A stretch of 64,000 bases of DNA from Roseibacillus sp. (GCA_965242925.1 CBDEUM010000030.1:288001-352000); one strand, 5' to 3'; numbered from the stretch's first letter, positions 16,434 to 61,102 are shown. Translations and numbers: made by a program. The notes: generated by a model not told the origin, from the sequence alone.

Positions 16434-16656
16434 CTTTCTTCCCTAGTTTTATAGGTATCGAATCTCAGAGGCACCAATGGGGCACCAACTTTGTCCGCCC
16501 AGGGCAAGCAGAAAACCCCCGGAGCGCGGCGGCGGAAATGAAACGCCACGCCACCGGGGGCGTATCCCTGAAAAAATGTTTACGCCGTGATCCAGTGACC
16601 GGCGAGCCAGTCGAGGAGACAGTGGCGCGGTGCGCCTAGCTTCATGCCCTTGGAGT

Positions 16657-17250
16657 CTATCCCCTGTGTTGCTCGAGCAGGGTCATCATTAAAAGTGCAA
16701 CGAGGATACGGATTTGCTGTTGGGAATCTATTTCTGTAATAGACTCAATGGAGAATTTACCCTCCCAGAGGGCCGGCTTTTTCTTCAGGCGCATGACTGC
16801 GTTGCCATTGGAGTCAGTGATAATGTAGCTCGGGTTGGTGAAGTAGCCGGCAAAGATTCCGATGATGGGGATGCCGGAAAAAAGAGAGTCCAGAAAACGG
16901 ATCAGGACAGATTCCTCACGCACGGTGAACTCTGCAGGTTGAGCGGCATCATTGGGATAAATCTCGTAGTGCGCCCGCCACAGGGAACGCAATCCTTTTC
17001 TCCTGACACCGCCAAACTGGTTTCCCTCAGCATTACTGAAGTTGTAGGCGGCTGACCAGTCGATGACTTTATTAGCCTTGATTTCACAAAGTTTCTTTTC
17101 CTTTGTGTTATCGGTGAATACCTCGACGTGTTCCTTGAGTTTGAAGAGCTTCTGCTTGACGTAGAGCACAGGACTGCCGTCGGCATCGGTGACATAAAGT
17201 TGCGGTGAGGCTGCCAATATTTTCCGGGTGAGTTGTAAGGGATATTTCAT
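16657..17250 (-). CDS. LURP-one/scramblase (tubby C-terminal-like) family protein
   Basis: VLYVKQKLFKLKEHVEVF, RKGLRSLWRAHYEI; visibly AT-richer than backbone. Confidence 0.7.
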   Translation of the reverse strand: MKYPLQLTRKILAASPQLYVTDADGSPVLYVKQKLFKLKEHVEVFTDNTKEKKLCEIKANKVIDWSAAYNFSNAEGNQFGGVRRKGLRSLWRAHYEIYPNDAAQPAEFTVREESVLIRFLDSLFSGIPIIGIFAGYFTNPSYIITDSNGNAVMRLKKKPALWEGKFSIESITEIDSQQQIRILVALLMMTLLEQHRG

Positions 17251-17568
17251 TTTCTTGATGAAAGGTGAACGGTGATTGCGGTGACGGCGTTGTTAACGAT
17301 CGGATTTCTTTTTGAAGGCATCTAAAACTTTCGCCTGATCAGTGGACGGGGCTTGGTTATGCCGGATTTCTTCTTTGTCGGAAAATCCTTATCCTTCTTG
17401 GCTTCGTTAACCTTCCCCAATCCAAACTCAAGCTCCTTTTCGAGTCCTGCTGCTGCTTCGCCATGTCGCTAAATGAACTAAACCTCGGGGAATAGAGCAA
17501 GAAGCCTCCTTGAAGTGGTTAAACCGAGAAACAAACCGGCAACGGGAGGAAACGCGGAGGGGGAAAGC

Positions 17569-17730
17569 AACCTCACCCCGCCCAGATCCCCGTGGATTTA
17601 ACCAGGGGGGTAATCGGTTGTCCTGGGCTCCACCCCTTTTACAATTTTTCTTCGGGGTGATGTGGCCTTTCGATGGGCTGACGCGCCCGTAGGGTTCCCA
17701 CGCTTGCCGACTGCGCCTGGGGGGTGGTAG
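17569..17730 (+). repeat. Junction repeat, modules A-D-B
   Basis: AACCTCACCCCGCCCAGATCC, 89-bp D block (17611-17699), CGCTTGCCGACTGCGCCTGGGGGGTGGTAG. Confidence 0.85.
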
Positions 17731-17812
17731 TCGCCTTACAAAGGCAGCACCTATTTGTAATAGACTTGTCCGTGATGGGCGCCTTAGGGGCGCGCGTTGT
17801 CTTATAAACGAG

Positions 17813-17894
17813 TCACCCCGCCCCGATCCGCGTGGGTTGGGTCCGGCCCCCAACAAGCCCCTCTCCTCGCTTGCCCCCTGCGCCTGGGGGGTGG
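17813..17894 (+). repeat. Junction repeat, modules A-B
   Basis: TCACCCCGCCCCGATCCGCGTGG ... CCCCTCTCCTCGCTTGCCCCCTGCGCCTGGGGGGTGG. Confidence 0.85.
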
Positions 17895-18049
17895 CCGGGT
17901 TCATTTCCAGCCATTCTGGGTTGGGAATGACGCTATGAAAATCTTGGACTGCCCTCGTCGCTTCTTCGTGTCCACCCGGTTTTGATGGTGATCGGAAGGC
18001 CTTCCCTCATAGTCACCGCTACGCAGGGCTACGATAACTGCGCCAAGAC

Positions 18050-19945
18050 ATGAAACATTCTCGCACGCCCCTCGCCGTGGGCTCCCTGGCATTCGTCATC
18101 CTGGGAGCCTGGCCACCATCGAGCGCCCAGCCACTGGTCTTCGACGAGAAGATCGGCCACTACAAGAACCTGTCCTACGAAGTCCTCTCCGACGAGGGCT
18201 TGTCCTGGGAGGAGCGGGTGAAGCTGTTCGGAGGAGAGACGGTTCACTACGAAAAGCTGACAAATCAAGAGCGCGCCGCCAAAGAGGCAGAACTGGCTGA
18301 GCTGTTGCGAAGGATGAGAATTGCAGACCGGATGGTGCATCCCAATTTCAGCGATGTGGAGCGGGCTGAGAAGGCCGTGCGCACCTGGCTCGACGCGCAG
18401 CTTCAACTGATTCCGGAGGCTTACACCGACCGGGACGCCCAGAAATTGCGCCACGCCGCGTTGGGCTTCTTCCGCGCCTACGAACTGTTTGGCGACAAGC
18501 GCTACCTCGAGGCCGGACTGACCTGCAGCGATCGGATTCTCGCCGCACAATTGCAACGAGGCCACTGGGCCTACGGTAATCAGGGCGGTAAGATGATGCG
18601 TATTCAGGATGGTTTTGTTACCAGGCCGTTCTGGATCATGCTCTACGCGCACAAGCTGAGCGGAGACAAAAAGTATCTCGAATCGGCCCGGCGCGGGGCC
18701 GATGTGCTCCTCTCCGCCCAGAGCGCAGGCGGCGGCTGGCCGGATCAATGGATATTTCCCGGGGGATCGACGCCCTCGAGCGGCACCCGCAATGGGAGTA
18801 TCTCATTCAACGACAGCGCCACCAACGCGACCTTCCGCATCATGGTCATGATGTACCATGTGACCGGGGACAAGAAGTACATCGCCAAGCTCGGCAATCT
18901 GGGACCGTGGATCGCAAAGGCGAACCTGGGCAAGGGCGAGTGGGCCGGCTGGTCCCAGCAGTACCACGGCGACGGCCGACCCACGCGGGCGCGGGCCTAC
19001 GAGATCGAGTTACCGTACACCCGAGTGACGTGCTGGCACGTGGGGCCATTGCTGACCTGGCTCTACCTGATGGACGGCAACGAGGCCCACATGGAATTGC
19101 TGAAACGGGCTTATGCCTCGCACGAGCGCATTCGGGTGGAGGACCTGAATTACCTGGACGACTGGAAGGCGATAGGTGCGGTCTGGACCGATACCCCTTC
19201 CTACCCCCGGCTTCAGTATCGACCCGGTTTGCCCGATGCCTACTTGCCCGATGGTTCGAACTGGGGCTGCGTGCAGATCGCCCACAAAATGATTCCGTTC
19301 AAAAAGATTACCCCCAAACAGATCAAAGATTACGGCGGTTTGATGCACCATCATCAGCCCAACGTGCGCGAGATGGCAAAACTCGCTCGGGCCTACCAGG
19401 CACCTCCCCGCTGGAACAATATCTACCTGTACTCGCACACCTCGAGTAAGGTCGCGTACGCCATGTCGAAAGTCCGCCGGGTGCTGCTCGAGCGCAAGCG
19501 CGGCGGACGTGATGCTGTGTTGCGGTATTATTCCTACCCGACAAAGTTCACCCCCGATCAATACCTGCAGGCTCGCATCGATGCCGCCAAGCGCGTGCTG
19601 GACTATGGCAACCGGTCTCTCGCGGTCGACCGGGGCGACGGGCCGGGCAGTAGCAGCATCAGCGCGTGGGAGGACTTCGGCTGGGTGTCCCGCAAATACA
19701 AGTGGTATGTCCGTGAGGCGGCTTTCAACACGTCCGGTCCGGGGTCGGGAACGGTTTGGTACCAGTGGCAGTTCCTCTGGGACAACAAGCTGGCCCACGG
19801 CAATATCGACGCCGACGCCGCCACGCGAGGCGGGCGCGGGCTCGAGATGTACTCGAACCTCGATTCATGGGACGTGCTGGGCGAGTGGGGCATGGCCTGT
19901 CTGGAGAAGGAAAACTACTTCGATGTCCCGATCGGGAAGGACTGA
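18050..19945 (+). CDS. Secreted pectate-lyase (PL10/PelA-like) alpha/alpha-barrel protein
   Basis: Signal peptide; LLSAQSAGGGWP, ISFNDSAT and AGWSQQY...RPTRARAYE motifs resemble PL10. Confidence 0.65.
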   Translation: MKHSRTPLAVGSLAFVILGAWPPSSAQPLVFDEKIGHYKNLSYEVLSDEGLSWEERVKLFGGETVHYEKLTNQERAAKEAELAELLRRMRIADRMVHPNFSDVERAEKAVRTWLDAQLQLIPEAYTDRDAQKLRHAALGFFRAYELFGDKRYLEAGLTCSDRILAAQLQRGHWAYGNQGGKMMRIQDGFVTRPFWIMLYAHKLSGDKKYLESARRGADVLLSAQSAGGGWPDQWIFPGGSTPSSGTRNGSISFNDSATNATFRIMVMMYHVTGDKKYIAKLGNLGPWIAKANLGKGEWAGWSQQYHGDGRPTRARAYEIELPYTRVTCWHVGPLLTWLYLMDGNEAHMELLKRAYASHERIRVEDLNYLDDWKAIGAVWTDTPSYPRLQYRPGLPDAYLPDGSNWGCVQIAHKMIPFKKITPKQIKDYGGLMHHHQPNVREMAKLARAYQAPPRWNNIYLYSHTSSKVAYAMSKVRRVLLERKRGGRDAVLRYYSYPTKFTPDQYLQARIDAAKRVLDYGNRSLAVDRGDGPGSSSISAWEDFGWVSRKYKWYVREAAFNTSGPGSGTVWYQWQFLWDNKLAHGNIDADAATRGGRGLEMYSNLDSWDVLGEWGMACLEKENYFDVPIGKD

Positions 19946-19972
19946 AGAGCCCCAGCCTGAGTGCACATGGAA

Positions 19973-20103
19973 GATCCGCGTGGCGTAGCCTCTCCCCGCT
20001 TGCCGACTGCGCCTGGGGGGTGGTAAGAAGGGTTCTACCCCCACCGTTCCCCGGTTCCTCAGCCTTCAGGAATCACGGACCGAAAAAACGATTCCCTAGC
20101 AGC
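19973..20103 (+). repeat. Junction repeat, modules A'-B-C
   Basis: GATCCGCGTGGCGTAGCCTCTCCCCGCTTGCCGACTGCGCCTGGGGGG ... CCCCGGTTCCTCAGCC...GAAAAAACGATTCCCTAGCAGC. Confidence 0.9.
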
Positions 20104-20362
20104 AGGGCATTTCCGGAATGACGCGCAAAACCACCAGCAGATTCTACACCCTCGCAAGAGTCGAGCACAACAAAGCATTGTTGATTCATCGTTCCAGGCA
20201 AATTCATCGCCAGCAGGCTAGGTAAATCGTGTCATAATCACGAAAGCACGCATGCTGCTTCCATGCCCCGAACGGAATCACATGGACGCAAACACTGTAC
20301 ACGTACACACCATTGTTCAGTTGTCGAGTTTCCTAAACAAACCTTCGGACAGTTGATTGGCG

Positions 20363-21928
20363 ATGAGCCTTAATTCAGAAAGCATATTCAGCGAACACTT
20401 CCGAGAGACACGCCGCCAACTGCGTTCGTTGTGGCTGAAAATATGGGGCGGTGGATTCGCTATCGTCCTCATCGGATTTTGCTTGGCTTGGTTTTTCATC
20501 CAGCCAGCGCCTCCACGTGAGATACACATGGCGGTTGGTTCACCAGATGGTGCCTATTTTCAATTTGCGAACGCCTATGCAGACGAGCTAGCGAAGCAGG
20601 GAATCGTGCTTCATCTTCATACGAGCAATGGATCACTGGACGATTATGAATTACTGCAAAAAGATGACAAAATCGATTTGGCAATTGTTCAAGGCGGGAC
20701 TGCTGCAGCAAACAAACTTTCAGACCCCAACATCGAGTCACTGGCTAGTTTGTATCTAGAACCAGTCTGGGTATTTTACCGCAGCGTTGAACCTTACCCT
20801 GACCTGCGTTCTTTCAAGGGCAAAACAATTGCCACCGGTCGTTTTGGTAGCGGCACAGCAGCTTTGTCAGCGCTACTCTTAAAAGAAAATGGAATCACGT
20901 CATCCTCCACCAATTTCCTGCCGATTGGCGGTCTTGAATCAATGCGCCAACTCAAAGATGGATCCATTGATGCAGCATTTTTCGTCACATCCCCAAGTGC
21001 TCCCGCGGTCCAGTCGCTGGTACGGATTCCAGGCCTTCGTCTGCTCGATTTCGAGCGTCACGAGGCATACTCAAAACGGCACCCCTTTTTGTCAGCTGTG
21101 CAACTCGAAGAAGGTGTCGTTGACCTTGAGAGAAACTACCCAAAATCCAATGTCCACTTGATTGCGCCGGCTGCTAACCTCATCGCCAACAAACGTTTAC
21201 ACGACTCGTTAATTCCGGTGCTACTACGTGCAGCTGATACCGTTCACCAAAATGAGCCGAGCCTGTTTCAGCACCCCCAACTTCCATCTGCACAATACAT
21301 TGAATTCCCCTTAAACGAATCAGCAAGACTCTATTTTGAGTCTGGTCCACCACTGCTTCAGAAGTACCTGCCTTTTTGGGTTGCTTCGTTTTTCGATCGC
21401 GGAGCAATTCTGTTGCTGCCTGCCCTGACTTTGCTTTTTCCACTCTTCAAAATTGCCCCCCCTCTCTACCGTTGGCGAATTCGGTCGCGCATTTACCGCT
21501 GGTACAAACTACTCCGCGAAATGGAAACGGACCTGAGAGGTGAAGACAATATCGAGAAGCTGCGCGTTCATTGGAACACATTGCAAATCATGGAAACCGA
21601 ACTCGATGACCTCCAAGATGTTCCATTGGCATACATGCAGGAGTTCTACAGCCTCAGACTGCACATTGAATTCGTAGAAAGACGTGTCATTCGCAGGCTC
21701 AGACTGAATAACGATTCAGGTGAGCATTCGGATAGCGAGAATCCGACCGACACACAATCAGGGAAAGAAACGGATCCAAGTGCGACAATTCTGAGAAAAA
21801 CTGAAGAAACAATCGCGATCGATTCAACAGTCCCATTTGACGCCGCTCAAGCAACGGTGACCGACATTCAATCCGAACAAAGTGATTCATCCCCCAACAA
21901 CAGCGACGCATCCCCTAAGAATCAGTAG
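20363..21928 (+). CDS. TAXI-family TRAP solute-binding protein, membrane-anchored form
   Basis: PAPPREIHMAVGSPDGAY, DLAIVQGG, SLYLEPVWVFYR, YLPFWVA and LYRWRIRSRIYRWY. Confidence 0.85.
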   Translation: MSLNSESIFSEHFRETRRQLRSLWLKIWGGGFAIVLIGFCLAWFFIQPAPPREIHMAVGSPDGAYFQFANAYADELAKQGIVLHLHTSNGSLDDYELLQKDDKIDLAIVQGGTAAANKLSDPNIESLASLYLEPVWVFYRSVEPYPDLRSFKGKTIATGRFGSGTAALSALLLKENGITSSSTNFLPIGGLESMRQLKDGSIDAAFFVTSPSAPAVQSLVRIPGLRLLDFERHEAYSKRHPFLSAVQLEEGVVDLERNYPKSNVHLIAPAANLIANKRLHDSLIPVLLRAADTVHQNEPSLFQHPQLPSAQYIEFPLNESARLYFESGPPLLQKYLPFWVASFFDRGAILLLPALTLLFPLFKIAPPLYRWRIRSRIYRWYKLLREMETDLRGEDNIEKLRVHWNTLQIMETELDDLQDVPLAYMQEFYSLRLHIEFVERRVIRRLRLNNDSGEHSDSENPTDTQSGKETDPSATILRKTEETIAIDSTVPFDAAQATVTDIQSEQSDSSPNNSDASPKNQ

Positions 21929-21993
21929 GGCGTCGAGCCAAAAGAGCCGGTTCGACATCGCCTCATGGGTGTATCAGGCTCTGGTCAACACGC

Positions 21994-22114
21994 GTTGCAC
22001 CCCCACCTTCCCCGGTTCCTCAGCCTCCAGGAAACACGGCCCGAAAAAGCGATCCCCTAGCAGCCGATCCGCGTAGCGTAACCTCACCCTGCCCCGATCC
22101 TCGTGGATTGGGTC
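21994..22114 (+). repeat. Junction repeat, modules C-A'-A
   Basis: GTTGCACCCCCACCTTCCCCGGTTCCTCAGCCTCCAGGAAACACGGCCCGAAAAAGCGATCCCCTAGCAGCCGATCCGCGT, then AACCTCACCCTGCCCCGATCC. Confidence 0.9.
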
Positions 22115-22239
22115 ACTTGCTCCGCTTTGGGATTACGCGCTCCTGCTTGAGTCGATGCATCAGTAGTCCCACCAGGTCGCCTTCAGGTTCCCGGACCACT
22201 GGAGCGTGCTCAAGAACGTGATCGTGGTGAAGTGAACCC

Positions 22240-23130
22240 CTACCTGGGAATTACCACCCGCGACGGTTCGACAGTGGCTATAAAGTATCCGAGCGGCCTC
22301 TCATTCAGGTCGGCAATGAGCCACGTTGCCTTGGAAAATGTCCCACGGGTGAGCGTCCCACCTGCCGCGATCTCGGCGTAGTATTTCAGTCCTCCACCGT
22401 ACTCAGCCCAATAGAGCTTCACCGCTTCACTCCTTGTGTTCTCGATACTGACGCTGCTGAGGTTGCCTCCTCCCTTGGAGCGCGGCGGCGTTTCCGTGCC
22501 GGCGGAAACCCACTTCAACTCGACGCGCACGGTTTTCTTCTCTTTCGCTTTGGCCATCTTCTTCCTTGCAGCAGCCTCGGCAGCGACCTTGTCGAGATTC
22601 ACTCCCCTCACGATTTTCAGCTTCGGTAATGACCGGGCGAGGTTGCTGCAGCCCTCATCGGTCACCCCGGTCTGCCAGACGTAGAGCCGCTGCAGCTTCT
22701 GCAAGGATTCAAGATGGACGAGTCCGGCATCGGTGACCTTGGTGCCGTAGAGATTCAGGTATTCAAGATTGGTCAAACCCGCCAGATGGGCCATGGCTCC
22801 ATCACCAACCCCCGTTCTCTCCAGATGAAGGCGTCCCAGATTGCTGAGATTCGCTAGCAGCTTGAGGCCCTCATCGCTTGTCCGGGTCCCTCTCAGATTC
22901 AGGGCGAGGACGGATTCCCCAAGCAGAGCGACCTGCGCCAGGGTGTCGTCTCCCATCGACTTGCCCTTCCGCTGGAACTCAATCTCCCAGCCTCCTCCCA
23001 GGGAACGGACGATCCCACCTTCATCGCGAATCGCCTGCAGGGCTCCGTCATTAGCATGCGAAAACGTACTGCCCGACAGGATGATGACTGCACCGCAGAG
23101 GAAAAGGGGCTTTTGGATAGAGTGGCGCAT
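22240..23130 (-). CDS. Secreted RNI-like leucine-rich repeat protein with C-terminal VHL beta domain
   Basis: LEYLNLYGTKVTDAGL repeats; IENTRSEAVKLYWAEYGGGLKYYAEI...TF...WLI matches the VHL-beta pattern; start trimmed to MRHSIQK. Confidence 0.75.
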   Translation of the reverse strand: MRHSIQKPLFLCGAVIILSGSTFSHANDGALQAIRDEGGIVRSLGGGWEIEFQRKGKSMGDDTLAQVALLGESVLALNLRGTRTSDEGLKLLANLSNLGRLHLERTGVGDGAMAHLAGLTNLEYLNLYGTKVTDAGLVHLESLQKLQRLYVWQTGVTDEGCSNLARSLPKLKIVRGVNLDKVAAEAAARKKMAKAKEKKTVRVELKWVSAGTETPPRSKGGGNLSSVSIENTRSEAVKLYWAEYGGGLKYYAEIAAGGTLTRGTFSKATWLIADLNERPLGYFIATVEPSRVVIPR

Positions 23131-23253
23131 TACCGGGTCAATGGCACGGCAGTGTACATGGTATTCCGCCCCTCGAACATCCTGCAAAGAGACGATCGCC
23201 GCATCTCCACAATTCCTGGTAGTTTTTAAGAAGAAATCAATTAGGATCAACTC

Positions 23254-24624
23254 GTGGATCATCATTTGCACTACACTCGGAGGCAGGTTCTTCGTTCGAG
23301 CGTGGCGCTGACGGGATTGACCCTCCCCAACTGGATGCAGATGCGGGCGCAGGCTGCGACCGAGCAGGCCCTCGAGACTGCTCCGAAGGCGAAGTCGTGT
23401 ATTGTCCTCTTCCTCTGGGGCGGATTGGCGCAGCAGGAGTCCTTCGATCCGAAGCCTGATGCCCAATCGGAGTATAAGAGCCGGTTCGGCGAGATCCCCA
23501 CCGCCACGCCCGGCATTCAATTCTGCGAATACCTTCCACTGCTGGCCAGGCATAGCGAGAAGATGGCAATCGTGCGGTCGGTGCACCACACCCAGGGAGC
23601 GCACGGAAGCGGACTCTACAAGAGCATGACCGGTCGCGATCCGATTGGCGGCACGAGAGCCCGCAATCGTGCCAACTGGCCGTCGCTGACCTCATTCCTT
23701 GGAAGGTTTCAGAAGCAGACTGCCGGTGTCCCCAATGCCATTCGCATGCCGCATACCATGTACGACAATGGCACACTCATGGCCGGTGACGATGCCGGCT
23801 GGCTGGGATCTGATTATGATCCGGTCATGCTTCGCATCCCCGACGGCACGCCCTATCAGGGGACGATCCGGCATACGGAGCCCGCACTCGATCTCACTCT
23901 CGGAGTCAAGTCGGACCGCTTCCGAAAGCGCCTCCTCATGCTGAACCAGCTCGAGCGCCGGCTCGCTGCGAAGGGGGCCGCTGAATACCAGGAACTGGAT
24001 CACTTCCGCCAGATGGCGGCCGACATGCTGGTCAGCTCGCCGGTCAAGGAGGCTTACGACCTCGAAAAGGAGGATCCCAGGCTGCGCGCGATGTACGGCG
24101 ATCACATGGGCGGACAGGGAATGCTTCTTGCCCGTCGGCTCACCGAGGTGGGAGTGCCGGTGGTTCAGGTGGTGTGTGCCGCCGAAGACCTTCAGGGCGG
24201 CTACTCGGACACATTTGACACCCATCACAATCACTTCCCCAAGATGAAGGAGCGACTCCTGCCCGTGTTCGACCAAGCCGCCTCCGCGCTTCTCACGGAT
24301 CTCGAACAGCGTGGGCAACTCGACGAAACCCTCGTTGTCTTCCTCACCGAGTTCGGACGCACGCCTAAGATCAATGGCAAGGGCGGACGCGATCATCATC
24401 CGGCCGTCTATTCCGTCGCGCTTGCAGGTGGCGGCATCCGGGGGGGGCAGGCCTACGGCAGCAGCGACAAGAATGCCGCCCTGCCCACCAGTGATGCCTG
24501 CACCCCGGCCGATCTCCACGCCACAGTCTACAAGGCGATGGGCATCGATCACCGGGCCGAGCTTCACGATCGGGAAGGACGCCCTTTCATCATCTGCGAG
24601 GGCAATCCGCTGCCACTGTTCTGA
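23254..24624 (+). CDS. DUF1501 family protein
   Basis: TRRQVL Tat-like start, AKSCIVLFLWGG, ESFDPKP, EFGRTPKIN, GRDHHP. Confidence 0.9.
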   Translation: MDHHLHYTRRQVLRSSVALTGLTLPNWMQMRAQAATEQALETAPKAKSCIVLFLWGGLAQQESFDPKPDAQSEYKSRFGEIPTATPGIQFCEYLPLLARHSEKMAIVRSVHHTQGAHGSGLYKSMTGRDPIGGTRARNRANWPSLTSFLGRFQKQTAGVPNAIRMPHTMYDNGTLMAGDDAGWLGSDYDPVMLRIPDGTPYQGTIRHTEPALDLTLGVKSDRFRKRLLMLNQLERRLAAKGAAEYQELDHFRQMAADMLVSSPVKEAYDLEKEDPRLRAMYGDHMGGQGMLLARRLTEVGVPVVQVVCAAEDLQGGYSDTFDTHHNHFPKMKERLLPVFDQAASALLTDLEQRGQLDETLVVFLTEFGRTPKINGKGGRDHHPAVYSVALAGGGIRGGQAYGSSDKNAALPTSDACTPADLHATVYKAMGIDHRAELHDREGRPFIICEGNPLPLF

Positions 24625-24638
24625 TTCGATCTCAATTC

Positions 24639-27068: not shown

Positions 27069-27117
27069 ATCCGGCTGCTGCAGGGTGTCTCTCGGCAGAG
27101 CAATCCACCACCCCACA

Positions 27118-43198: not shown

Positions 43199-43202
43199 CT
43201 GA

Positions 43203-47795: not shown

Positions 47796-47820
47796 TGTTG
47801 CGGGGTATTTTAACAGGCTC

Positions 47821-49066: not shown

Positions 49067-49099
49067 TCTGGCGGATCTGTCATCGGTTTTGACTCCTGC

Positions 49100-52156: not shown

Positions 52157-52227
52157 CCGGCACAATGAATGGCGACGGCAAACTCCAGTTGGACGAGTTG
52201 AAAAAGTGAACAACCAGGAATTTGTTT

Positions 52228-53821: not shown

Positions 53822-53853
53822 ATGCTAAGAAGCGGAAAAGGAATCACGGTGCT

Positions 53854-53985
53854 ATGAAGATATTCGTCCTGCTGTTTGCCGCGCTACTGGTCGCGGGTTG
53901 TGGTGAGAAGTCGTCATCCGAAGGTTCGGAGTCGGCCAGTGAGAAGCCAACGGCGTCCGATGAAAGCGCGGGGGCCGTGAGATAA
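53854..53985 (+). pseudogene. Orphan lipoprotein signal-peptide module (43 codons)
   Basis: MKIFVLLFAALLVAGCGEKSSSEGSESASEKPTASDESAGAVR*; first about 85 bp near-identical to the 33051 gene. Confidence 0.75.
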
Positions 53986-54014
53986 ACGCGGCTGCGCCTC
54001 CGCGGAATGGTCGT

Positions 54015-54191
54015 CCAGGACTCGGTCCGAAAAAGCAATTCCCCAGCAGCCGATCCGCGTGGATCGGGTCAGGGAATAATCGGTTGTCCCAGGTTTTACA
54101 CCTTTTGCATTCTTTCTCCGACGTGACGCGTCCTTTCAGCGGTCTGACGAGTCCGTAGGGTTCCCGTGATCCGGGGTAGCTGGGGGTGCAG
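54015..54191 (+). repeat. Junction repeat C-end/A'/D followed by inverted C-start
   Basis: GAAAAAGCAATTCCCCAGCAGCCGATCCGCGTGG, D block 54077-54165, then CCGGGGTAGCTGGGGGTGCAG (reverse complement of C start). Confidence 0.85.
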
Positions 54192-54254
54192 TCCCTGCCG
54201 AGAATCGGCTCATCTTGGTGGGGGGCAAAAAGGACTGACGAATCAGGTCCCGGC

Positions 54255-55223
54255 TCAGCTGGCGAGAATCCTGGCAAGCTCCAGCAGGTTCGCGGGCAGC
54301 TCGCGCGTCTCTTTCCAGGCCAGCTCGAGCTCGACCAGGGTGACCTGTCCATTTCGACTCGCCACCAGCTTCGAGGACTCTCCCGATAGCAGCGCGTCAA
54401 CCGCAGCCTTTCCGAAGAGCCCTCCCTGGACCCTGTCAGCGGCGCTGGGAGCGCCGCCGCGCTGGATGTAGCCCAGGACCGAGACGCGCGGATCGTAGCC
54501 TGACTGGTCGGAGATCTTCCGGGCGATCTCATAGGCGTTTCCCGCGTCGTCTCCCTCGGCGACCACCACGATGCTGGAGACCTTGCCGGCCTCGCGGCAG
54601 CGCTCGAGCTGGGCACAGAGCGCTGTGATATCCGTCGGCACCTCCGGCACCAGGACTCCCTCGGCGCCGCAGGCGAGCGCCACCTGGAGGGAGAGGAATC
54701 CCCGGTTGCGGCCCATGACCTCGACCAGGAAGAGCCGCTCGTGGGAGGTGGCCGTGTCGCGGATCTTGTCGATGGCCTCTACCGCGGTATTGACGGCCGT
54801 GTCGAACCCGAGGGCATAGTCAGTTCCGCCCACATCATTATCGATGGTTTTCGGTATCCCGATGAGCGGCAGGTTGGTCTGGCGCGCGAGCTCCGAGGCG
54901 CCGTTCAGCGAGCCATCGCCTCCGATCACGACCAGGCCCTCAATTCCGCGTTCGAGGAGGTGGGAGGCGGCTTTCTCCCGCGCCTCGGGTTCCCTGAATT
55001 CCGGACAGCGGCTGGAGCGGAGAACGGTTCCACCCAGGTTGACGATTCCCGCCACGCTGCGGGCATCCATGCGCTCCATCTCATTATCGATCAGGCCTCG
55101 CCACCCGCGGTGGACCCCGATGGTCTCGATGCCGCCGGCAAGGGCCGTTCTTACAACGGCGCGAATGCAGGGATTCAGGCCCGGGCAATCTCCTCCGCTG
55201 GTCAGCAGTGCTATTCGTTTCAA
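54255..55223 (-). CDS. pfkA: 6-phosphofructokinase
   Basis: LLTSGGDCPGLN, GGTVLRSSR, IGGDGS, PKTIDND, EVMGR, LGYIQRGG; TTG start at 55223. Confidence 0.93.
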   Translation of the reverse strand: MKRIALLTSGGDCPGLNPCIRAVVRTALAGGIETIGVHRGWRGLIDNEMERMDARSVAGIVNLGGTVLRSSRCPEFREPEAREKAASHLLERGIEGLVVIGGDGSLNGASELARQTNLPLIGIPKTIDNDVGGTDYALGFDTAVNTAVEAIDKIRDTATSHERLFLVEVMGRNRGFLSLQVALACGAEGVLVPEVPTDITALCAQLERCREAGKVSSIVVVAEGDDAGNAYEIARKISDQSGYDPRVSVLGYIQRGGAPSAADRVQGGLFGKAAVDALLSGESSKLVASRNGQVTLVELELAWKETRELPANLLELARILAS

Positions 55224-55282
55224 GTGCGGGGGGGGGGTACTCAGCAGCCAAGGTCCTCGTCGGTTGGATCCATTGCGGCCCT

Positions 55283-55354
55283 GGCTGCCAGGGAATTTCT
55301 TTTTCGGGCTATGTTTCCTGGAGGCTGAGGAGCCGGGGTAGGTGGGGGGGTGCA
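55283..55354 (-). repeat. Junction repeat module C (inverted)
   Basis: Minus strand TGCACCCCCCCACCTACCCCGGCTCCTCAGCCTCCAGGAAACATAGCCCGAAAAAGAAATTCCCTGGCAGCC. Confidence 0.9.
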
Positions 55355-55461
55355 GGCTTCGTTGGTCGCGGCTAGGCACCGCTGATGCCGGCGGCGATTG
55401 GCCAGAAGGATAAACTAGCCGGGTGAAAATGCCACATCAAAGCCTAGTCCCCGCTTGCCCC

Positions 55462-56877
55462 CTACGCCAGGATCGCCTTCACCACCTTGGCTGGTTCCAC
55501 CCCGGTGAGGCGGAAGTCGAGCCCTTGGAACTTGTAGCTGAACTTGCGGTAGTCGATGCCGAAGAGGTGCAGGAGGGTCGCGTGGAAGTCGTGCACCGTG
55601 ACCACATCCTTTTCCGCGTTGTAGCCCAGGTCGTCGGTCGCGCCGTGGCTCACACCGCCCTTGATCCCGCCGCCCGCAAACCACATCGAGAATCCCTTGA
55701 TGTGGTGGTCGCGTCCGTTGCCCTGCGCCATGGGAGTACGGCCGAACTCGCCGCCCCAGATCACCAGGGTGTCGTCCAGCATGCCGCGCTCCTTGAGATC
55801 TTTGATCAAGGCTGCGCTGCCCTGATCCACCAGGCGTGCAGTGTTCTGCGTGCCCCCCTTCACCCCGCCGTGGTGATCCCAACCGCGATGATAGAGTTGG
55901 ATAAAGCGCACACCGCGTTCGGCCAGACGACGCGCGAGCAGACAATTCGATGCAAAGGAGCCATCCCCCGGCTTGGCGCCATACATGTCGAGGACGTGCT
56001 TGGGCTCATTCGAGACATCCATCAGGCCCGGCACCGAGGCCTGCATCTTGAACGCCATCTCGTACTGCGCAATGCGGGCCGCGATCTCCGGATCGTCAAC
56101 TTCGCCGTCGTGAATCTGATTCAAAGCGTTCACGGTATCAACCACCGAGCGCTGGTCCTCGCGGGAGACTCCCTGCGGATTGCCCACGTAGAGCACCGGA
56201 TCACCCTTGGCATGGAAGGGGACACCCTGGAACCGGCTCGGAAGGAACCCGCTGTGCCACTGCCGGGCCGCGATGGGTTGGCTTTGGCCTCCTCCCACCG
56301 ACGTGAGAACCACGTAGCCCGGCAGGTCATCGGTCTCTGCTCCCAGCCCGTAGAGAAGCCAGGACCCCATACACGGGCGACCGGAAATCTGCGTGCCCGT
56401 ATTCATAAAGGTGTGGGCCGGATCGTGATTGATTTGCTCCGTCACCAGCGACCGCACGATAGCGATCTCGTCCGCCACCTCGCCAATGCGCGGGAAGATG
56501 GAACTGATATGCTGTCCGCTCTTCCCAAAGTTCTTGAACTCGTGCTGTGGTCCCAGGCACTTCAGGTTATTCCGGCTACCCTGTAACTGCGCGATGGGCT
56601 GACCCTCGGTAATCGACTTGGGCATGTCCTTGCCGTTCATCTCCGCAAGCTTGGGCTTGTAATCGAGGGTCTCAAGGTGGGAGGGGCCGCCCGCCATGCA
56701 CAGGTGAATGACTCGCTTGGCCCGGGGAAGAAGGTGCGGCTTCTTGATCACACCGGTCCATTTCTCGGCTTCAGCGGCACGGGATTCTTGCAGGATCGAC
56801 GCGAGCGCAAGAGCACCGATCCCTGTCGTCGACTTGTTGAGGAAGGAGCGGCGGTTCAGATAGTTGGGAAAGTCCAT
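55462..56877 (-). CDS. DUF1501 family protein
   Basis: NRRSFL, AKRVIHLCMAGGPSHLE, GGEFGRTP, GRDHH. Confidence 0.92.
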   Translation of the reverse strand: MDFPNYLNRRSFLNKSTTGIGALALASILQESRAAEAEKWTGVIKKPHLLPRAKRVIHLCMAGGPSHLETLDYKPKLAEMNGKDMPKSITEGQPIAQLQGSRNNLKCLGPQHEFKNFGKSGQHISSIFPRIGEVADEIAIVRSLVTEQINHDPAHTFMNTGTQISGRPCMGSWLLYGLGAETDDLPGYVVLTSVGGGQSQPIAARQWHSGFLPSRFQGVPFHAKGDPVLYVGNPQGVSREDQRSVVDTVNALNQIHDGEVDDPEIAARIAQYEMAFKMQASVPGLMDVSNEPKHVLDMYGAKPGDGSFASNCLLARRLAERGVRFIQLYHRGWDHHGGVKGGTQNTARLVDQGSAALIKDLKERGMLDDTLVIWGGEFGRTPMAQGNGRDHHIKGFSMWFAGGGIKGGVSHGATDDLGYNAEKDVVTVHDFHATLLHLFGIDYRKFSYKFQGLDFRLTGVEPAKVVKAILA

Positions 56878-56911
56878 GGAGTTCGCTGTTCAGAGTTCGG
56901 TCTTCAGCGGC

Positions 56912-59839
56912 CTACTGCCGCGTGATGGTCTCGTGAAGATTGAGAATGGTTCGGGCGACCGTAGTCCAAGCTGCCAGTTCGGCGACCGGAAGATCGGTCG
57001 GGGCAGGACGAAGACCAACGGAGAGGAGTTGTTTGCCGGCAGCGCCATCCGCGAGGTAGCGCTTGAATTGAGCCACCTGCAAATCGGCCACGATCTTGAG
57101 GTCACGATCGCTGGGCGGACGCGAGAGCGCTTCGAGGAAAGCCCAACGAATGCGGGCCACCGCATCGTCACCACCCTCTTTCATGATGCGCTCCCCGAGG
57201 GCGCGCGCCGCTTCCACGTAGGTCGGGTCGTTGAGGAGCACGAGGGCCTGCAAGGGCGTGTTCGAACGCGGCCGCTCCGCCGTGCACTCCTCCCGCGACG
57301 GCGCATCGAAGGCCAGCAGGCTGGGGTGCAGGAAGCTGCGTTGCCAGTGAGTGTAAACAGCGCGGCGATACTGACTCTCGCCGGAGTCCGGTGCCCACTT
57401 GCGGCCGGGGAAGTTGAGGTGGCGCCAATAGCCGGCGGGTTGATATGGTTTCACACTGCGGCCGCCGATTTGCTCGACCAGGATTCTCCCAAGGGCGAGC
57501 GCATTATCGCGCACCATCTCGGCATCCATGCGGAATCGCGACTGCCGCGCGAGAAGGATATTCAGAGCATCCCGCTCACGGCTCGCCACCGTGGACTTGG
57601 AACTCTGCGCGTAGGTCTTCGACGTCACGAGGAGCTTCGCCAGGCGCTTCACGTCCCAGCCGCTCTCCATGAAATCGACTGCCAGCCAATCGAGCAATTC
57701 GGGATGGCTGGGCCACTGGCCTTGCGCTCCCAGGTCATCAACGTTGCGCGAGAGTCCCGCGCCAAAGTAGAGCTTCCACACCCGGTTCACAAAAGCCCGG
57801 GCGGTGAGCGGATTCTCGCGATCGACCACCCAGTTGGCCAGGTCGAGCCGACTGGCCCGGCGCTCACCCGTATCGAGTTTGCCCAGGAAGCCCGGGATCG
57901 CCGGAGTGACCTCGGGACCAGAGTCATCGAGCCAGTTTCCGCGCGGTAGGATTCGCATCGTGCGTGGGGTCGTCGCAGTGGTCACCAGGGTGCGGGGCAG
58001 TTTCTTGGAAAACTCCGCCTTTTCCCGCTTGGCGGCCTCCACCTTGGCGCGAGCCTCCGCCAGTTCCGGCGAGACCGAGAGGTAGTAGTCGGCCACCGCG
58101 GTCTTTTCCTCGGCGGAGCGTTGATCCGCTGGCTTCTTCACGATGGCCACGATGTTGGCGGGCACGTGACTGCCCCCCGCCTTGAAGTAGAAGCCCGCTC
58201 CCCCACCGTGGTTCACGATCTTCATGAGATACTGGTTGTTCCCTTTCTTGAGCGAGACCGTGATCTTCTCCTGATCGGCCGCCGCTCCGCGCCCGACGTT
58301 CTTGCTCAGTTGCTCCGTGCTGTTCACCCAAACGCGAATCCCGTCATCGGATCCCAGCGAAAGGGCCAGCTGGGTCGGCAGCGGTGCCGTGATGGTGCGA
58401 TAGAGATACCAGGCCGCGTTCCCGTCTCCCGGAAGGGCATGAACGTTCCCATCGGGAAAATCGGTCCGCTTTTGCCACCTCTTGCCGTTGAGCGCGGCCT
58501 TTGCATCGACCTTCGTTTCCGGTCCAAAGGCCGTGTCAAACACCTTGTTAGCATCGCCGCCGGTAAACGGTCCGATGAGGTGCCAGTCTCCGAGGCTGGG
58601 CTCGATCGATGACGCAATGCTCTTCTCCCACTCCGCCTGCGCTTTTGCGAAACCGGGCGTGCCCGATCGCGCCTCTTTGGAGAGCTGGGCAATCCTGGCA
58701 TCGAGCTCAGCGCCGCGTTTCTTGTAGTTGCCGGAAGCCACCGGCATGTAACCCTCCCGACCGCCCACCCCCTTCTCTTTCACGTCGGCGAAGAAGGCCG
58801 CCATCGAATAAAAGTCCTTGGCCGTGTAGGGATCGTACTTGTGATCGTGGCATTGCGCGCAGCCGAGCGTACTCCCCAGCCACGCTCCGGAAATACTCCG
58901 CACGCGATCGGCGGCATAGATCGCAACGTACTCCTTGGCCTGGGCTCCGCCTTCCGCGGTCGTCTGCAGCAGGCGATTATATCCCGAGGCCACTTTCTGC
59001 TCCGAGGTGGCGTTCGGAAGGAGGTCCCCCGCTATTTGCCAGCGCGTGAACTCATCGAAACCTTGATTGGCATTGAAGGCCTCGATCACCCATTCGCGAT
59101 AGGGATAGACATCCATCGGGTTGTCGCTGTGGTATCCGATCGAATCCGCATAGCGCACCAAATCGAGCCAGAAGACCGCCATGCGTTCTCCATAGCGAGG
59201 GCTGTCGAGCAAGCGGTCGGCCGCTGCTGCAAGCGCTCCCGGGAGATCCGTGGCAGCATGCTTCCTGAAGGCCGCGACCTGATCCTGTGTGGGAGGGAGG
59301 CCGGTGAGGTCAAAGCTCAGTCGGCGCAAGAGAGTGTGCAACTCGGCCGGGGCCGAAGCCTTGAGGCCCTCGGCATCGAGCCGGGTCCCGATAAAGTGAT
59401 CAACCGGATGCGCGCCCTTGGGCAACGAGGTCTTGCGAGGAAGATCGTAGGACCAGTGGCCCTCCCATTCCGCCCCCTGCTCAATCCACTTCTTGATAAG
59501 CGCAATCTCCTCCGGCTTCAGTTTCTTCTCCGTCTTGGGCGGAGGCATGACGTCCTCCCTGTCCTCGGTGAGAAGACGGAAGAGCAGCTCGCTGTCGTCC
59601 GGCTTCCCCGGAACGACTGCAATGATCCCCTTGCGGTCGGCGTAGATCCCGCCCTCTTTCACATCCAGCCGGAGCTTGGCCTTCCGTTCGTGTTCGTCCG
59701 GCCCGTGACAGGCAAAGCAGTTCTCGGAGAGAATGGGACGAATATCCCGGTCGTAGCGGATGCGTCCTTCGGCCGACAGGGCGACCGACGAGCCCACGGC
59801 AAGAAACGCAGCGGAAAGCGTAATGGCAGAATTCCTCAT
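56912..59839 (-). CDS. Planctomycete cytochrome c / DUF1549 / DUF1553 (PSD1) protein
   Basis: IRPILSENCFACHGPD, MPPP, CAQCHDHKYDP, PSHPELLDWLA, SNTPLQAL. Confidence 0.92.
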   Translation of the reverse strand: MRNSAITLSAAFLAVGSSVALSAEGRIRYDRDIRPILSENCFACHGPDEHERKAKLRLDVKEGGIYADRKGIIAVVPGKPDDSELLFRLLTEDREDVMPPPKTEKKLKPEEIALIKKWIEQGAEWEGHWSYDLPRKTSLPKGAHPVDHFIGTRLDAEGLKASAPAELHTLLRRLSFDLTGLPPTQDQVAAFRKHAATDLPGALAAAADRLLDSPRYGERMAVFWLDLVRYADSIGYHSDNPMDVYPYREWVIEAFNANQGFDEFTRWQIAGDLLPNATSEQKVASGYNRLLQTTAEGGAQAKEYVAIYAADRVRSISGAWLGSTLGCAQCHDHKYDPYTAKDFYSMAAFFADVKEKGVGGREGYMPVASGNYKKRGAELDARIAQLSKEARSGTPGFAKAQAEWEKSIASSIEPSLGDWHLIGPFTGGDANKVFDTAFGPETKVDAKAALNGKRWQKRTDFPDGNVHALPGDGNAAWYLYRTITAPLPTQLALSLGSDDGIRVWVNSTEQLSKNVGRGAAADQEKITVSLKKGNNQYLMKIVNHGGGAGFYFKAGGSHVPANIVAIVKKPADQRSAEEKTAVADYYLSVSPELAEARAKVEAAKREKAEFSKKLPRTLVTTATTPRTMRILPRGNWLDDSGPEVTPAIPGFLGKLDTGERRASRLDLANWVVDRENPLTARAFVNRVWKLYFGAGLSRNVDDLGAQGQWPSHPELLDWLAVDFMESGWDVKRLAKLLVTSKTYAQSSKSTVASRERDALNILLARQSRFRMDAEMVRDNALALGRILVEQIGGRSVKPYQPAGYWRHLNFPGRKWAPDSGESQYRRAVYTHWQRSFLHPSLLAFDAPSREECTAERPRSNTPLQALVLLNDPTYVEAARALGERIMKEGGDDAVARIRWAFLEALSRPPSDRDLKIVADLQVAQFKRYLADGAAGKQLLSVGLRPAPTDLPVAELAAWTTVARTILNLHETITRQ

Positions 59840-59975
59840 GAGACGATCAGGGAATGTCGGAGAAGAATGCCGGTTTTAGAATCAAATTCGTCTCCCTCCC
59901 CTGAAAGCATGAACGAAATGGATGCGGGCGGGGAACACCAGAGGGAACGAACCGGGCTGCGCTCCGTCCAGCGGC

Positions 59976-60043
59976 CTGCTCCCCCTCCTTCCCCGCCCGA
60001 CAGGCGACCAGGGACGCCGGGGTCAGAAAAACGATTCCTTAGC
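59976..60043 (+). repeat. Degenerate junction repeat module C
   Basis: CTGCTCCCCCTCCTTCCCCG ... CCAGG ... GAAAAACGATTCCTTAGC. Confidence 0.5.
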
Positions 60044-60151
60044 TATCGAAGCCGCAGAAAGAAGGTGGCGAAACTTGCGGCCGGAAAACAGGCTGCGGTT
60101 GAGAAACTGCGAGCGTGACGCACCGCTGACGGGAGCGGAGACTGCCTCGGC

Positions 60152-61102
60152 ATGATCGTCACCCCTTCGCAATCCGAGCTCTGGTCTGCCGGGGAACAGG
60201 TTTGCCGGCAGTTCGAGCTTGGCGAGGTCCGCCAACTCGAGGCTCTCCCGCATCAGGGGTACTCGAACTTCAATGCCCGGCTCGACACGGATCGGGGAAC
60301 TTACGTCCTGCGGCGCTACACTGAGCAACCGGCGGAGAAGATCACCCACGAGCTTCGGTTGATCGACTGGCTGGATGGGCAGGGCCTTCCGGTGGTCCCT
60401 CCCCTCCGCGATCCCGACGGGAGGGCGAGGTGCACACCGGATCGGGACCACCCTGCTCCATGGGTCGTGTTTCCCTTCGTGGACGGAGAGGAACCGGAGC
60501 CACTCCCCACAACCGCGCGCAAAATGGGAGAACTGGCGGCTCGGCTCCACCAGATCCCGGAGCGACCCTGGAAGGATGGAGATCGCGAGAACCTGCTCTC
60601 GGTGCGGGCCACCCTCACGATTGCGGACTCCCTGCGCGAGACGGAGACGAGTTCGGCCCGGCACTTCCTGCAGGTGGTGGACCTGCTGGCACCCGGGGTG
60701 CACGATTTGAATCTTCCCACCGGCCTGGTGCACGGCGACCTCTTTCCCGACAACACCATCTTCCGGGAGGGCAACCTGGTAGCGGTGCTCGACTGGGAGG
60801 AAGCCTGTGTCGACCACTACCTGTTCGATCTCGCCATGGCGATGCACGGATTCTGCTACGTCGCCGAAGAATGGCGCCCAGACCTCGCCCGCAGCTTCCT
60901 GGCGGGATACGAAGCGGGCCGGCCTCTCGATCGGGTCGAACGCGGGAGCCTGCCGCTCTTCCTTCGCTGGACTCCCCTCGCGATGGCAGGTTGGCACCTC
61001 CGTCGCTACTCGCTCGCGCCCAGTCCCCGGCAAGCCAGGCGCATCGACCAATTGCTACGACGGGCCGAGACCGTCTTCGACTGCGATCCTCTCTTCCCAT
61101 GA
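60152..61102 (+). CDS. Type II homoserine kinase / APH-fold phosphotransferase
   Basis: GYSNFN, YVLRRY, GLVHGDLFPDNTIF, VLDWEEAC, FDLA. Confidence 0.75.
   Translation: MIVTPSQSELWSAGEQVCRQFELGEVRQLEALPHQGYSNFNARLDTDRGTYVLRRYTEQPAEKITHELRLIDWLDGQGLPVVPPLRDPDGRARCTPDRDHPAPWVVFPFVDGEEPEPLPTTARKMGELAARLHQIPERPWKDGDRENLLSVRATLTIADSLRETETSSARHFLQVVDLLAPGVHDLNLPTGLVHGDLFPDNTIFREGNLVAVLDWEEACVDHYLFDLAMAMHGFCYVAEEWRPDLARSFLAGYEAGRPLDRVERGSLPLFLRWTPLAMAGWHLRRYSLAPSPRQARRIDQLLRRAETVFDCDPLFP

Follow-up and report, generated by a model that had tools for sequence, protein, structure and literature searches.

How genes are gained and lost in the flexible genomic islands of free-living marine bacteria, where no mobile-element machinery is obvious, is the question raised by the locus described here. 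The window, meaning the whole stretch of DNA that was analysed, comprises 64,000 nucleotides (nt) of a Roseibacillus metagenome-assembled genome (MAG) of the phylum Verrucomicrobiota (GCA_965242925.1 CBDEUM010000030.1:288001-352000, or contig C30 of genome G000). This MAG has 4.58 Mb in 42 contigs, with 89.9% completeness and 3.2% contamination, and all relatives compared with it are MAGs too (relatives are denoted by G numbers and contigs by C numbers; contigs without a genome number belong to G000). Downstream of the gene for tRNA-Sec (selC), about 45 kb are occupied by gene-sized or operon-sized patches separated by short repeated modules. In the original prediction, made from the sequence alone, this region was considered a candidate new system that captures foreign DNA. 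On balance, the evidence favours an additive flexible genomic island at selC, whose patches are exchanged by recombination in short similar stretches. The island is a variant of known flexible genomic islands, not a new transposon-like capture machine; what is unusual is the modular vocabulary of its junctions. A Pfam scan of 43 open reading frames (ORFs) of the window showed a gene content typical of the Planctomycetota-Verrucomicrobiota group (DUF1501, PSCyt1/2, PSD1, sulfatase, LTD/CotH, PEP-CTERM), and the stretch is present in many marine metagenomes from 13 studies.

The tRNA gene is the left anchor of the island. Upstream of selC, the genes for EIIA, TrkH, TrkA, a TPR protein and a giant protein keep their order in five relatives (G011, G018, G005, G013, G009), so that the conserved flank on at least one side that marks a tRNA hotspot is present. 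The second mark of such islands, cassette content differing at the same site in relatives, was also observed: none of the island genes of the window was found downstream of selC in G012 (45 kb), G004 (34 kb) or G011 (5 kb). A comparison of this locus among relatives had been proposed with the original prediction. In 6 relatives (G002, G014, G010, G018, G005, G013) the contig ends less than 600 bp from selC. Linkage to tRNA genes extends to other parts of the genome, where modules are found at three tRNA-Leu genes, giving four tRNA-linked loci with selC. The first module lies 1.1 kb after selC; the cluster on C34 begins 9 nt after tRNA-Leu(caa), that on C38 begins 139 nt after tRNA-Leu(aag), and that on C33 encloses tRNA-Leu(taa).

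Neither partial tRNA copies nor tRNA direct repeats were detected in 16.4-64 kb, and the sole similarity to a tRNA flank there is a 22-nt match (29548-29569) to the 3' flank of tRNA-Leu(caa). Since similarity is limited to this flank, an identity of the modules as tRNA fragments or att sites was rejected. In an alignment by eye, the start of the element at 16508-16615 (Table 1) resembles the leader of the tRNA-linked lipoprotein genes described below. A short hairpin with a T-rich loop is located directly 3' of both tRNA-Sec and tRNA-Leu(caa), and the module copy at 29548 carries this hairpin as well. In G002 (L018; G002:C9:34000-37052), a partial tRNA-Sec 5' region (L018 512-584) and a tRNA-Ser(gga) stand between the end of the giant gene and the full tRNA-Sec, an arrangement that looks like an insertion at selC.

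In a self-comparison of the window, families of short direct repeats begin at 17.5 kb. The named pieces are A (with a small hairpin), B, C, D (~68 nt), E (~94 nt), F and a 43-nt unit, together with a lipoprotein leader and signal-peptide module and the C-terminal remnants of LRR-type and MORN-type lipoprotein genes. Fifteen of the 18 boundaries originally listed carry such repeats. BLAST at E<=1e-3 accounts for 14 of them, and the fifteenth, 49048, has 19 nt identical to 17571-17589. Of the other three, 48121 shows a single weak match of 34 nt, and 30392 and 59976 show no match. The first 16 kb had been described as free of repeats, and indeed no non-coding module occurs in 1-16.4 kb.

A library of 16 junction segments was searched against the genome. 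On C30, matches are confined to window 17565-62430. With C30, 9 of the 42 contigs have matches; the others are the whole 15-kb C23, four places on C34, one on C38, two each on C33 and C14, and single short matches on C13, C22 and C29. Because the modules are confined to few loci of the genome, they are clustered and not scattered like repetitive extragenic palindromes (REPs), a distribution that would have spoken against the prediction. REPs are palindromic, occur genome-wide in hundreds of copies and are tied to RAYT, and bacterial interspersed mosaic elements (BIMEs) are enterobacterial mosaics of few short motifs. The blocks of the island resemble them as intergenic mosaics of shuffled short motifs; unlike them, the modules are non-palindromic, few and clustered, and the MAG is without RAYT. 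Among other Roseibacillus species, 11 of 19 have a 352-nt module block; it was detected in none of the 21 genomes that represent other genera in the family and order.

Module blocks fold no better than shuffled sequences, either as DNA (z -1.96 to +1.95; 4 blocks, both strands) or as RNA (z -1.6 to +0.4), and a modest hairpin was obtained for a single copy only. In a 33-copy alignment, D shows no conserved structure (consensus -1.8 kcal/mol, no useful covariation), and Rfam finds nothing in the window besides tRNA-Sec, even at E<=0.5. An identity of the modules as REPs, attC sites or structured RNAs was rejected, since they fold like shuffles and belong to no Rfam family. The motif GCACATGG, considered as a common cassette end, was dropped with 3 matches against 2.6 expected.

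The orientation of the modules is nearly uniform. Non-coding repeat pairs within the window are direct in 14 cases and inverted in one (module D, 55283-55348), and GATCCGCGTGG (<=1 mismatch) occurs 8 times in the island, always on the + strand; the claim that the modules occur in both orientations thus fails apart from this single D copy. For each of A, C, D and the 43-nt unit, there is a patch with direct copies of it on either side. Exact matches between module copies do not exceed 46 nt.

Some of the vocabulary comes from a family of lipoprotein genes whose signal peptide hardly varies, in the form of their 5' region and debris. Intact members are found on C34, beginning 9 nt 3' of tRNA-Leu(caa), and on C38, beginning 139 nt 3' of tRNA-Leu(aag). 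One intact member is present in the window (33051-33650, LRR_5), and its signal-peptide module is 93-95% identical to those of the truncated starts at 29664, where the ORF stops after 32 aa, and at 53854. Other debris includes a 25-aa C-terminal remnant (47694-47768) and a single MORN repeat (41565-41631). The junction at 29545-29725 matches C34:307299-307479, a stretch beginning 9 nt 3' of tRNA-Leu(caa), with 88% identity over 182 nt, and that at 53835-54195 is 75.7% identical over 383 nt to C23:13170-12790 and 98% over 116 nt to G014:C105. These remnants and two frameshifted genes (~46582, ~52700) are what remains of the earlier statement that flanking genes are cut mid-frame, which is mostly wrong, as the large island genes are complete by Pfam coverage. 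Near 46582, a 1-nt deletion splits a PSCyt2/PSD1 gene into two ORFs, the copy in G009 being intact (698 aa); the deletion reflects either true pseudogenisation or an error of the consensus. The overlapping frames of the DMFA2-like gene suggest a frameshift near 52700. A cut of the PSCyt2 gene by the junction at 47438 was rejected, as the intact 698-aa ORF of G009 starts 46 nt inside the patch.

Several modules are located directly upstream of genes. The ATG codons at 33051, 39876 and C23:9010 are each preceded by module C, which ends 10-17 nt before them, and a ~50-nt leader reaches the start codon of three unrelated secreted-protein genes, namely the sulfatase of the window, an esterase-like gene on C34 and a gene on G008:C191. 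The D core was found at 47 metagenome loci, with 19 distinct copies having at least 450 nt on each side; among these, a sense ORF of at least 100 aa occurs within 100 nt after D in 14 of 19 (antisense control 7 of 19; near-duplicate loci included). Highly similar sequence directly upstream of non-homologous genes, the property of mobile promoters, was thus observed for D, the 50-nt leader and module C. Judged from their position, D, A-B-C, the 43-nt unit and the ~50-nt leader may be portable leader or putative promoter modules. Near-identical upstream sequences before non-homologous genes, within and between genomes, have been reported as promoter reuse, for which the means of movement was unknown (PMC3575422). 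Compared with the available part of that report, the present modules differ in that they are concentrated in few tRNA-linked islands and coincide with patch breakpoints.

The modules could be small non-autonomous mobile elements of a MITE-like (miniature inverted-repeat transposable element) or Correia-like, promoter-bearing kind, inserted in an island built otherwise, so that they mark the junctions and do not make them. This explanation appears distinctly unlikely. The ends of D are sharp in 20 copies, whose flanks are unrelated; D is up to 97% identical between species, and DNA containing it is present or absent upstream of the phosphofructokinase (PFK) gene depending on the species. Mobile promoter-bearing repeats are known (PMC3575422, in its available part), and C29 has one IS3-family element, pieces of which lie at module loci of C38 and C34. 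The D termini, however, are complementary over 4 nt only, and no matching transposase was found (no match for Y1 or DDE_Tnp_1, and a single rve gene). The insertion at 55235-55345 (with the inverted D), which is absent upstream of PFK in G004 and G011, is composite, as G008 has only its first half; no target duplication was recognised at this polymorphic site. Moreover, modules occur at few loci and are not spread through intergenic DNA, and mobile elements alone leave unexplained why patches change neighbours at modules.

The rve-type transposase gene, the only one in the MAG, belongs to an IS3-family insertion sequence with orfA and orfB (C29:364976-366123), located between tRNA-Glu and tRNA-Leu(tag). 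Fragments of its right end were found at C38:90624-90782 and C34:42315-42391, both module loci, and at the end of C15; a copy of 89-93% identity adjoins the GSDH patch on G009:C138. The 288-nt non-coding-looking element at 43153-43440 also occurs, at 80-85%, at C38:90350-90635, where an IS3 end fragment is next to it, and in G005 (two copies), G009, G002, G003 and G004.

The mosaic itself, in which patches are joined by shuffled modules, had been correctly recognised, as the same patches stand in other neighbourhoods in sister species. Patches recur in other Roseibacillus at 92-99% nt identity with other neighbours, compared with a core identity of 71-82% nt or 69-81% aa. Core identity to G000 is 91-93% nt for G008, 82% nt for G012, 71-77% nt for G005, G014 and G010, and 69-81% aa for G009. 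Cassettes are therefore near-identical across species without a link to core divergence, although the best cases are on short contigs; the matches of 92-95% lie on contigs of 16-87 kb and are safer. The clearest change of neighbours was found in G012. Patch g39876 with A-B-C (window 39797-40334; 94.4%) and patch g18050 with its C modules (96.1%) both match G012:C235, where their homologs are adjacent, g39876 first, in an 8.1-kb insert upstream of tRNA-Ser(tga). In G000 they are 20 kb apart, and the site on C4 that is orthologous to the G012 locus lacks the insert.

Comparable cases are found along the island. The sulfatase patch (41622-43109) matches G009:C75, an 87-kb contig, at 95.3% and G014:C170 at 92.1%, with flanks unrelated to those in G000. 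The stretch 43772-47438 is 99.1% identical to G009:C48 (32 differences in 3668 nt), and D modules stand on both sides of it there. The GSDH patch (49098-52188) matches G009:C138 at 97.5% and G006:C288 and C102 at 98-99%; in G006 the sequence continues after it with F-A-B-C, then a lipoprotein gene, then the DUF1501 patch starting from 55457. The PFK patch was found in G008:C191 (95.3%), G004:C25 (94.7%) and G011:C35 (94.5%), and in G008 the DNA after it corresponds to a G000 stretch beside tRNA-Leu(taa) on C33. The stretch 55448-59937 matches G012 (95.3%) and G014 (93.4%) with both flanks different; extended to 61226, it matches G012:C269 at 95.3% and 91.6% and G014:C42 at 93.4%. From 62414 on, the window is 99% identical to G008:C122. 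In its coding region only, g18050 (18130-19939; L046, L048) also shows 75-82% nt and 78-83% aa identity to contigs labelled Planctomycetota, which reflects either cross-phylum transfer or mislabelled bins.

The capture of arbitrary foreign DNA, as first proposed, is too strong a description, because most patches come from a genus-wide pool and the 7.3-kb block at 22239-29529 is an ordinary conserved Roseibacillus cluster. This block forms one unit in at least 10 relatives of the genus at 69-81% identity (80.7% in G012), which is about core divergence. Orthologs of G000 C26 and C33/C12 stand on its two sides in G012 and G015, the C26 ortholog was seen on one side in G019 and G011, and none of these four genomes has modules beside it. 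Because of this core-like divergence and its module-free homes in relatives, it looks like a native cluster relocated into the island. A phage or plasmid origin of the island was rejected, since 16434-62500 has no megablast match in the plasmid and phage collections; the 20-nt core of D is likewise absent from viral contigs. The visibly different base composition described originally applies to three stretches, at 16-18 kb (GC content 0.53-0.55), 20-22 kb (0.50) and 40-41 kb (0.52); the remainder is at 0.56-0.65.

Junctions that could be compared between species are ragged and fall in stretches of similarity of 9-17 nt. At the 3' end of the sulfatase patch, homology to G009 and G014 begins in a 9-nt string that is common to the abutting MORN remnant; at the 5' end, homology stops 5 nt before the ATG, and a leader module replaces the native upstream sequence with ~10 nt in common around the start codon. 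The stop-side end of DUF1501 merges with a C module, ~13 of 17 bases matching. After the GSDH gene, three different continuations were observed in G000, G009 and G006 with breakpoints ~20 nt apart, and the 3' flank of PFK exists in two versions. The joints are thus ragged joints of short homology and not one fixed crossover site, and such joints would fit short-homology or illegitimate recombination. Of the two mechanisms first put forward, homology-anchored recombination on the repeats agrees with the junctions that could be compared. A retro-capture of mRNAs, considered for patches that are trimmed tightly to their ORFs, was rejected: the MAG has no RVT_1 match, and microhomology at the start codon explains the tightness better.

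Table 1. Patches, junction blocks and anchoring elements of the island (window coordinates)
Feature	Position	Strand	Basis or remarks
tRNA-Sec (selC), left anchor	16340..16433	+	ARAGORN; Rfam RF01852, 59 bits
~100-nt element 3' of three tRNA genes (Sec, Ser-tga, Met)	16508..16615	+	82-88% to C4:67279-67385, C4:140892-141011
First patch, LURP-one-related (LOR) gene, GC 0.53-0.55	16657..17250	-	Pfam PF04525
Junction block, modules A-E-C then A...C	17565..17900	+	copies on C23, C34, window 54052-54165, G008:C51
Patch g18050, 631 aa, Pec_lyase-like, ORF 18050-19945, C module each side	17859..20014	+	
Junction block B-C-D	19960..20110	+	self-comparison, BLAST
Patch g20357, NMT1-like, GC 0.50	20357..21928	+	direct D copies 20037-20103, 21999-22064 (91%)
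Junction block D-B'-A	21990..22125	+	BLAST; D alignment
7.3-kb four-gene block: LRR protein (-); DUF1501, PSCyt2/PSD1, TIG-PPC (+)	22239..29529		
Junction: tRNA-Leu(caa)-3'-flank-like hairpin, lipoprotein leader, signal-peptide remnant	29545..29725	+	
Module C and intact LRR_5 lipoprotein gene 33051-33650	32995..33650	+	Pfam PF13306
Modules F-A-B-C and patch g39876 (140-aa secreted protein, 39876-40298)	39740..40334	+	
PD40 beta-propeller gene, start 40376, GC 0.52	40328..41564	+	Pfam
Single MORN-repeat remnant of lipoprotein gene, abutting sulfatase stop codon	41565..41631	+	83-86% to C34, C38 MORN repeats
Sulfatase patch, ORF 41632-43104	41622..43109	-	patch ends 5-10 nt from ORF at both ends
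Leader fused at sulfatase start codon (43097-43156) and 288-nt multi-copy element (43153-43440)	43097..43440	-	
Patch DUF1501 and PSD1/PSCyt2	43772..47438	-	99.1% to G009:C48
25-aa C-terminal LRR lipoprotein remnant, then module A	47688..47805	+	81.6% to 33575-33650
Module A copy 49048-49066 and GSDH-like gene patch 49098-52188	49048..52188	+	
DMFA2-like gene, two overlapping frames 52222-52704, 52694-53821	52222..53821	+	
Junction: 43-aa signal-peptide remnant, then D', A, E	53835..54195	+	
Phosphofructokinase (PFK) patch	54171..55285	-	second, weaker PFK match on C38
Insertion 55235-55345 with sole inverted module (D, 55283-55348), then hybrid C-like module into DUF1501 stop codon	55235..55471	-	
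DUF1501 and PSCyt1/2-PSD1 patches (-), APH-family kinase 60152-61102 (+)	55448..61226		
Last module copy, MORN-repeat-like	62352..62427	+	

The PD40 gene stands between direct repeats, its two copies of the 43-nt unit (40328-40370 and 41522-41564) being 97.7% identical. Gene units between co-oriented repeats recall integrons. In an integron or a cluster of attC sites lacking an integron integrase (CALIN), either IntI stands beside the array or at least two attC sites are present, and attC is an imperfect palindrome that folds as single-stranded DNA. The modules would then be recombination sites and the patches cassettes of a site-specific system, integron-like or rAID-like, with a recombinase that acts in trans or is missing from the 90%-complete MAG. 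In the window, on C34 and on G012:C235, the copies of A-B-C share one orientation, which is also that of the neighbouring tRNA gene; D forms same-strand arrays with one copy every 1.2-2.5 kb on G008:C153 and on metagenome contigs; the ends of D are sharp; and true integron integrases occur in the genus, with three TIGR02249 matches above the cut-off in 2 of 20 genomes (G007:C692, G017:C263, G017:C70). None of these is in G000. The IntI contigs of G017, G007 and G009 are free of modules, which lack an attC-like fold, D being unstructured. The whole MAG has two Xer-like recombinases and one weak tyrosine recombinase match, none of them near a module locus, and no resolvase (serine recombinase) match. 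With genes on both strands, some multi-gene patches and ragged breakpoints counting against it as well, a site-specific cassette system seems unlikely. Among the integrase contigs (L052-L054), L052 starts with three copies of a ~185-nt repeat, and no repeat there resembles the modules of the window.

The rAID-1 arrays, in which repetitive intergenic sequences stand between gene units and a recombinase is linked (bioRxiv 10.1101/471110, in its available part), are a second model of this kind. The island shares with integrons and rAID-1 the gene units separated by co-oriented repetitive sequence, patches trimmed tightly around ORFs, and IntI in the genus. It differs from them in that its modules stand upstream of ORFs as leaders, not downstream, and do not fold like attC, no recombinase adjoins it, its genes occupy both strands, and some patches comprise several genes.

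The absence of an integrase or intact transposase from the stretch, noted at the outset, was confirmed, as Pfam showed no recombinase, integrase or transposase among the 43 ORFs, and no HUH or Rep-like ORF either. The mechanism that had been put first, a one-ended rolling-circle capture of fragments of the IS91/ISCR or Helitron type, has in its favour only that fragments and repeats occur together while an integrase is lacking. No match for Y2_Tnp (PF04986) was found in G000 or in the 43 window ORFs, with the limit that control genomes were equally silent in this search. The MAG also has no match for Y1_Tnp, for which the control was positive in 6 genomes, nor for DDE_Tnp_1 or RVT_1. No end of a one-ended element was seen beside the patches; direct repeats and short homology delimit them at either end, and the island has no plasmid or phage match. 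Rolling-circle capture is extremely improbable.

A different kind of explanation is an artefact of metagenome assembly or binning, in which the 45-kb path would be a chimera of several strains or loci formed via the repeats and the matches across species would be mis-binned. All genomes are MAGs, and the 7.3-kb block is located elsewhere in four relatives, near the ends of G000 C26 and C12. Logan contigs of four public runs (X1, X5, X6, X17) cover the patches and end exactly in modules (17830, 20002, 22024-22032, 29610), as public contigs do at every module, and module bins are 5-20x deeper than patch bins. Their joints have sides of 19-47 nt, and those that were traced are other genomic copies; for example, 16532 to 29644 is the C38 locus. 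A gap in the coverage by X5 at 30.9-32.2 kb was left out of the evidence. In runs X1 and X6, 33650 (the end of the LRR lipoprotein gene) is joined to module A at 17813 with four letters between (depth 14); this adjacency, absent from the assembly, is either another genomic copy or a structural variant.

On the other side, the longest exact module match, 46 nt, is judged to be shorter than the k-mers implied by a 375-kb contig, and a repeat-induced chimera is considered unlikely; a strain-mosaic consensus is possible. The patches of 17.8-29.6 kb have equal depth in run X1 (18-21), with the LOR patch shallower (5.8), a pattern that fits one genome with multi-copy modules and does not phase the patches. 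Local joints recur in independent assemblies: B-C-D-g20357 in the metagenome contig L072, A-B-C-g39876-A-B-C-g18050 in G012, and A-E-PFK in G008. The contig L072 matches window 19966-21561 at 95.8% before it diverges into other sequence. At the end of C26 there is a different gene instead of a module, and the matches of 92-95% stand on long contigs. An artefact as the general explanation is thus very unlikely.

For the additive island exchanging patches by short similarity, the following course is proposed. Gene- or operon-sized patches from a genus-wide pool would accumulate beside tRNA-Sec, with the DNA between them drawn from a small genus-specific vocabulary of leader- or promoter-like modules and debris of tRNA-adjacent lipoprotein genes. 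Patches may enter, leave and move via short shared stretches, by RecA-type crossovers in the longer modules and by microhomology-mediated illegitimate joins elsewhere. Direct module copies flanking a patch would permit its loop-out and its re-insertion wherever the same module exists. A dedicated enzyme would not be required.

Several points weigh against this interpretation. The mechanism is read from end products, with no recombination event observed, and most modules are 20-90 nt long, the low end for homologous recombination. The order of the patches rests on a single MAG assembly, which the public contigs do not phase. PFK is shared with the closest relative, G008, at only 95% compared with a core identity of 91-93%, and thus shows no excess over the core. 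The matches of 98-99% in G009 and G006 are on contigs of 2-7 kb and could be mis-binned DNA of a G000-like strain. The association of D with ORFs is suggestive only. Finally, a discrete element, mobile or site-specific, would be compatible as well with the sharp ends of D, the polymorphism at 55235-55345 and the strict co-orientation of A-B-C with neighbouring tRNA genes.

The closest description of such a locus is that of the additive flexible islands of Alteromonas, which use tRNA hotspots including tRNA-Leu and tRNA-Ser and carry nearly identical cassettes across species regardless of core phylogeny; cassette content differs among close relatives, and illegitimate recombination was proposed for integration (PMC4898812). 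With this precedent in print, to judge from the available part of the report, the term candidate new system is too strong. The tRNA site, the variable content and the near-identical cassettes across species are common to both. In Alteromonas, direct repeats of tRNA parts flank some cassettes, whereas none was found here; the present island belongs to the phylum Verrucomicrobiota, and its junctions reuse genus-specific modules and lipoprotein-gene debris, which the available part of PMC4898812 does not describe. Prochlorococcus islands are marine, abut tRNA genes, consist mostly of material outside elements and have older arrivals pushed inward by later ones (bioRxiv 10.1101/2020.12.28.424599). 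To the extent that this source is available, the present island resembles them in being tRNA-abutting, marine and mostly outside recognisable elements; tycheposons have an integrase, replication hallmark genes and flanking partial tRNAs, none of which is in the window. A shared junction vocabulary, derived partly from tRNA-linked lipoprotein genes and coinciding with patch breakpoints, is not described in the available parts of the related work compared. A search of the literature on Roseibacillus genomic islands gave nothing relevant by title or abstract, which is a thin basis for calling the arrangement absent from print.

Two further repeats were observed in large genes. The 1994-aa gene at 9995-15979, upstream of selC, contains ~37 tandem copies of a 15-nt unit (10242-11000) and additional internal repeats of 300 nt at 13.3-14.7 kb, with an Extensin-like match and PD40 and prenyltransferase-like domains. 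Within the island, 33652-34492, the upstream region and N-terminal part of a 1954-aa LTD/CotH gene, has copies of 84-86% at C12:92354-92921, C9:94313-94884 and C9:759-1268.

A more far-reaching version, which is only a tentative possibility, is an integrase-free, genus-specific exchange of cassettes in which the tRNA-linked, lipoprotein-derived leader modules serve both as promoters and as recombination anchors, a homology-driven analogue of the integron. If this is true, ORFs sharing ~10 nt with a module at their first codons or 3' tail would be captured, trimmed, expressed, looped out and passed between species, and a route from promoterless ORFs to cassettes would become visible. If the island is only a MAG mosaic, it would advise caution when the structure of islands is deduced from metagenome bins. 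The joints can be read unusually well here, as few modules and lipoprotein debris stand at nearly every breakpoint and patches are traceable through several species. If confirmed by long reads, the locus would provide a tractable case for repeat-anchored and microhomology-mediated gene flow, and would show incoming ORFs gaining ready-made leaders in Verrucomicrobiota, where such islands have been little studied.

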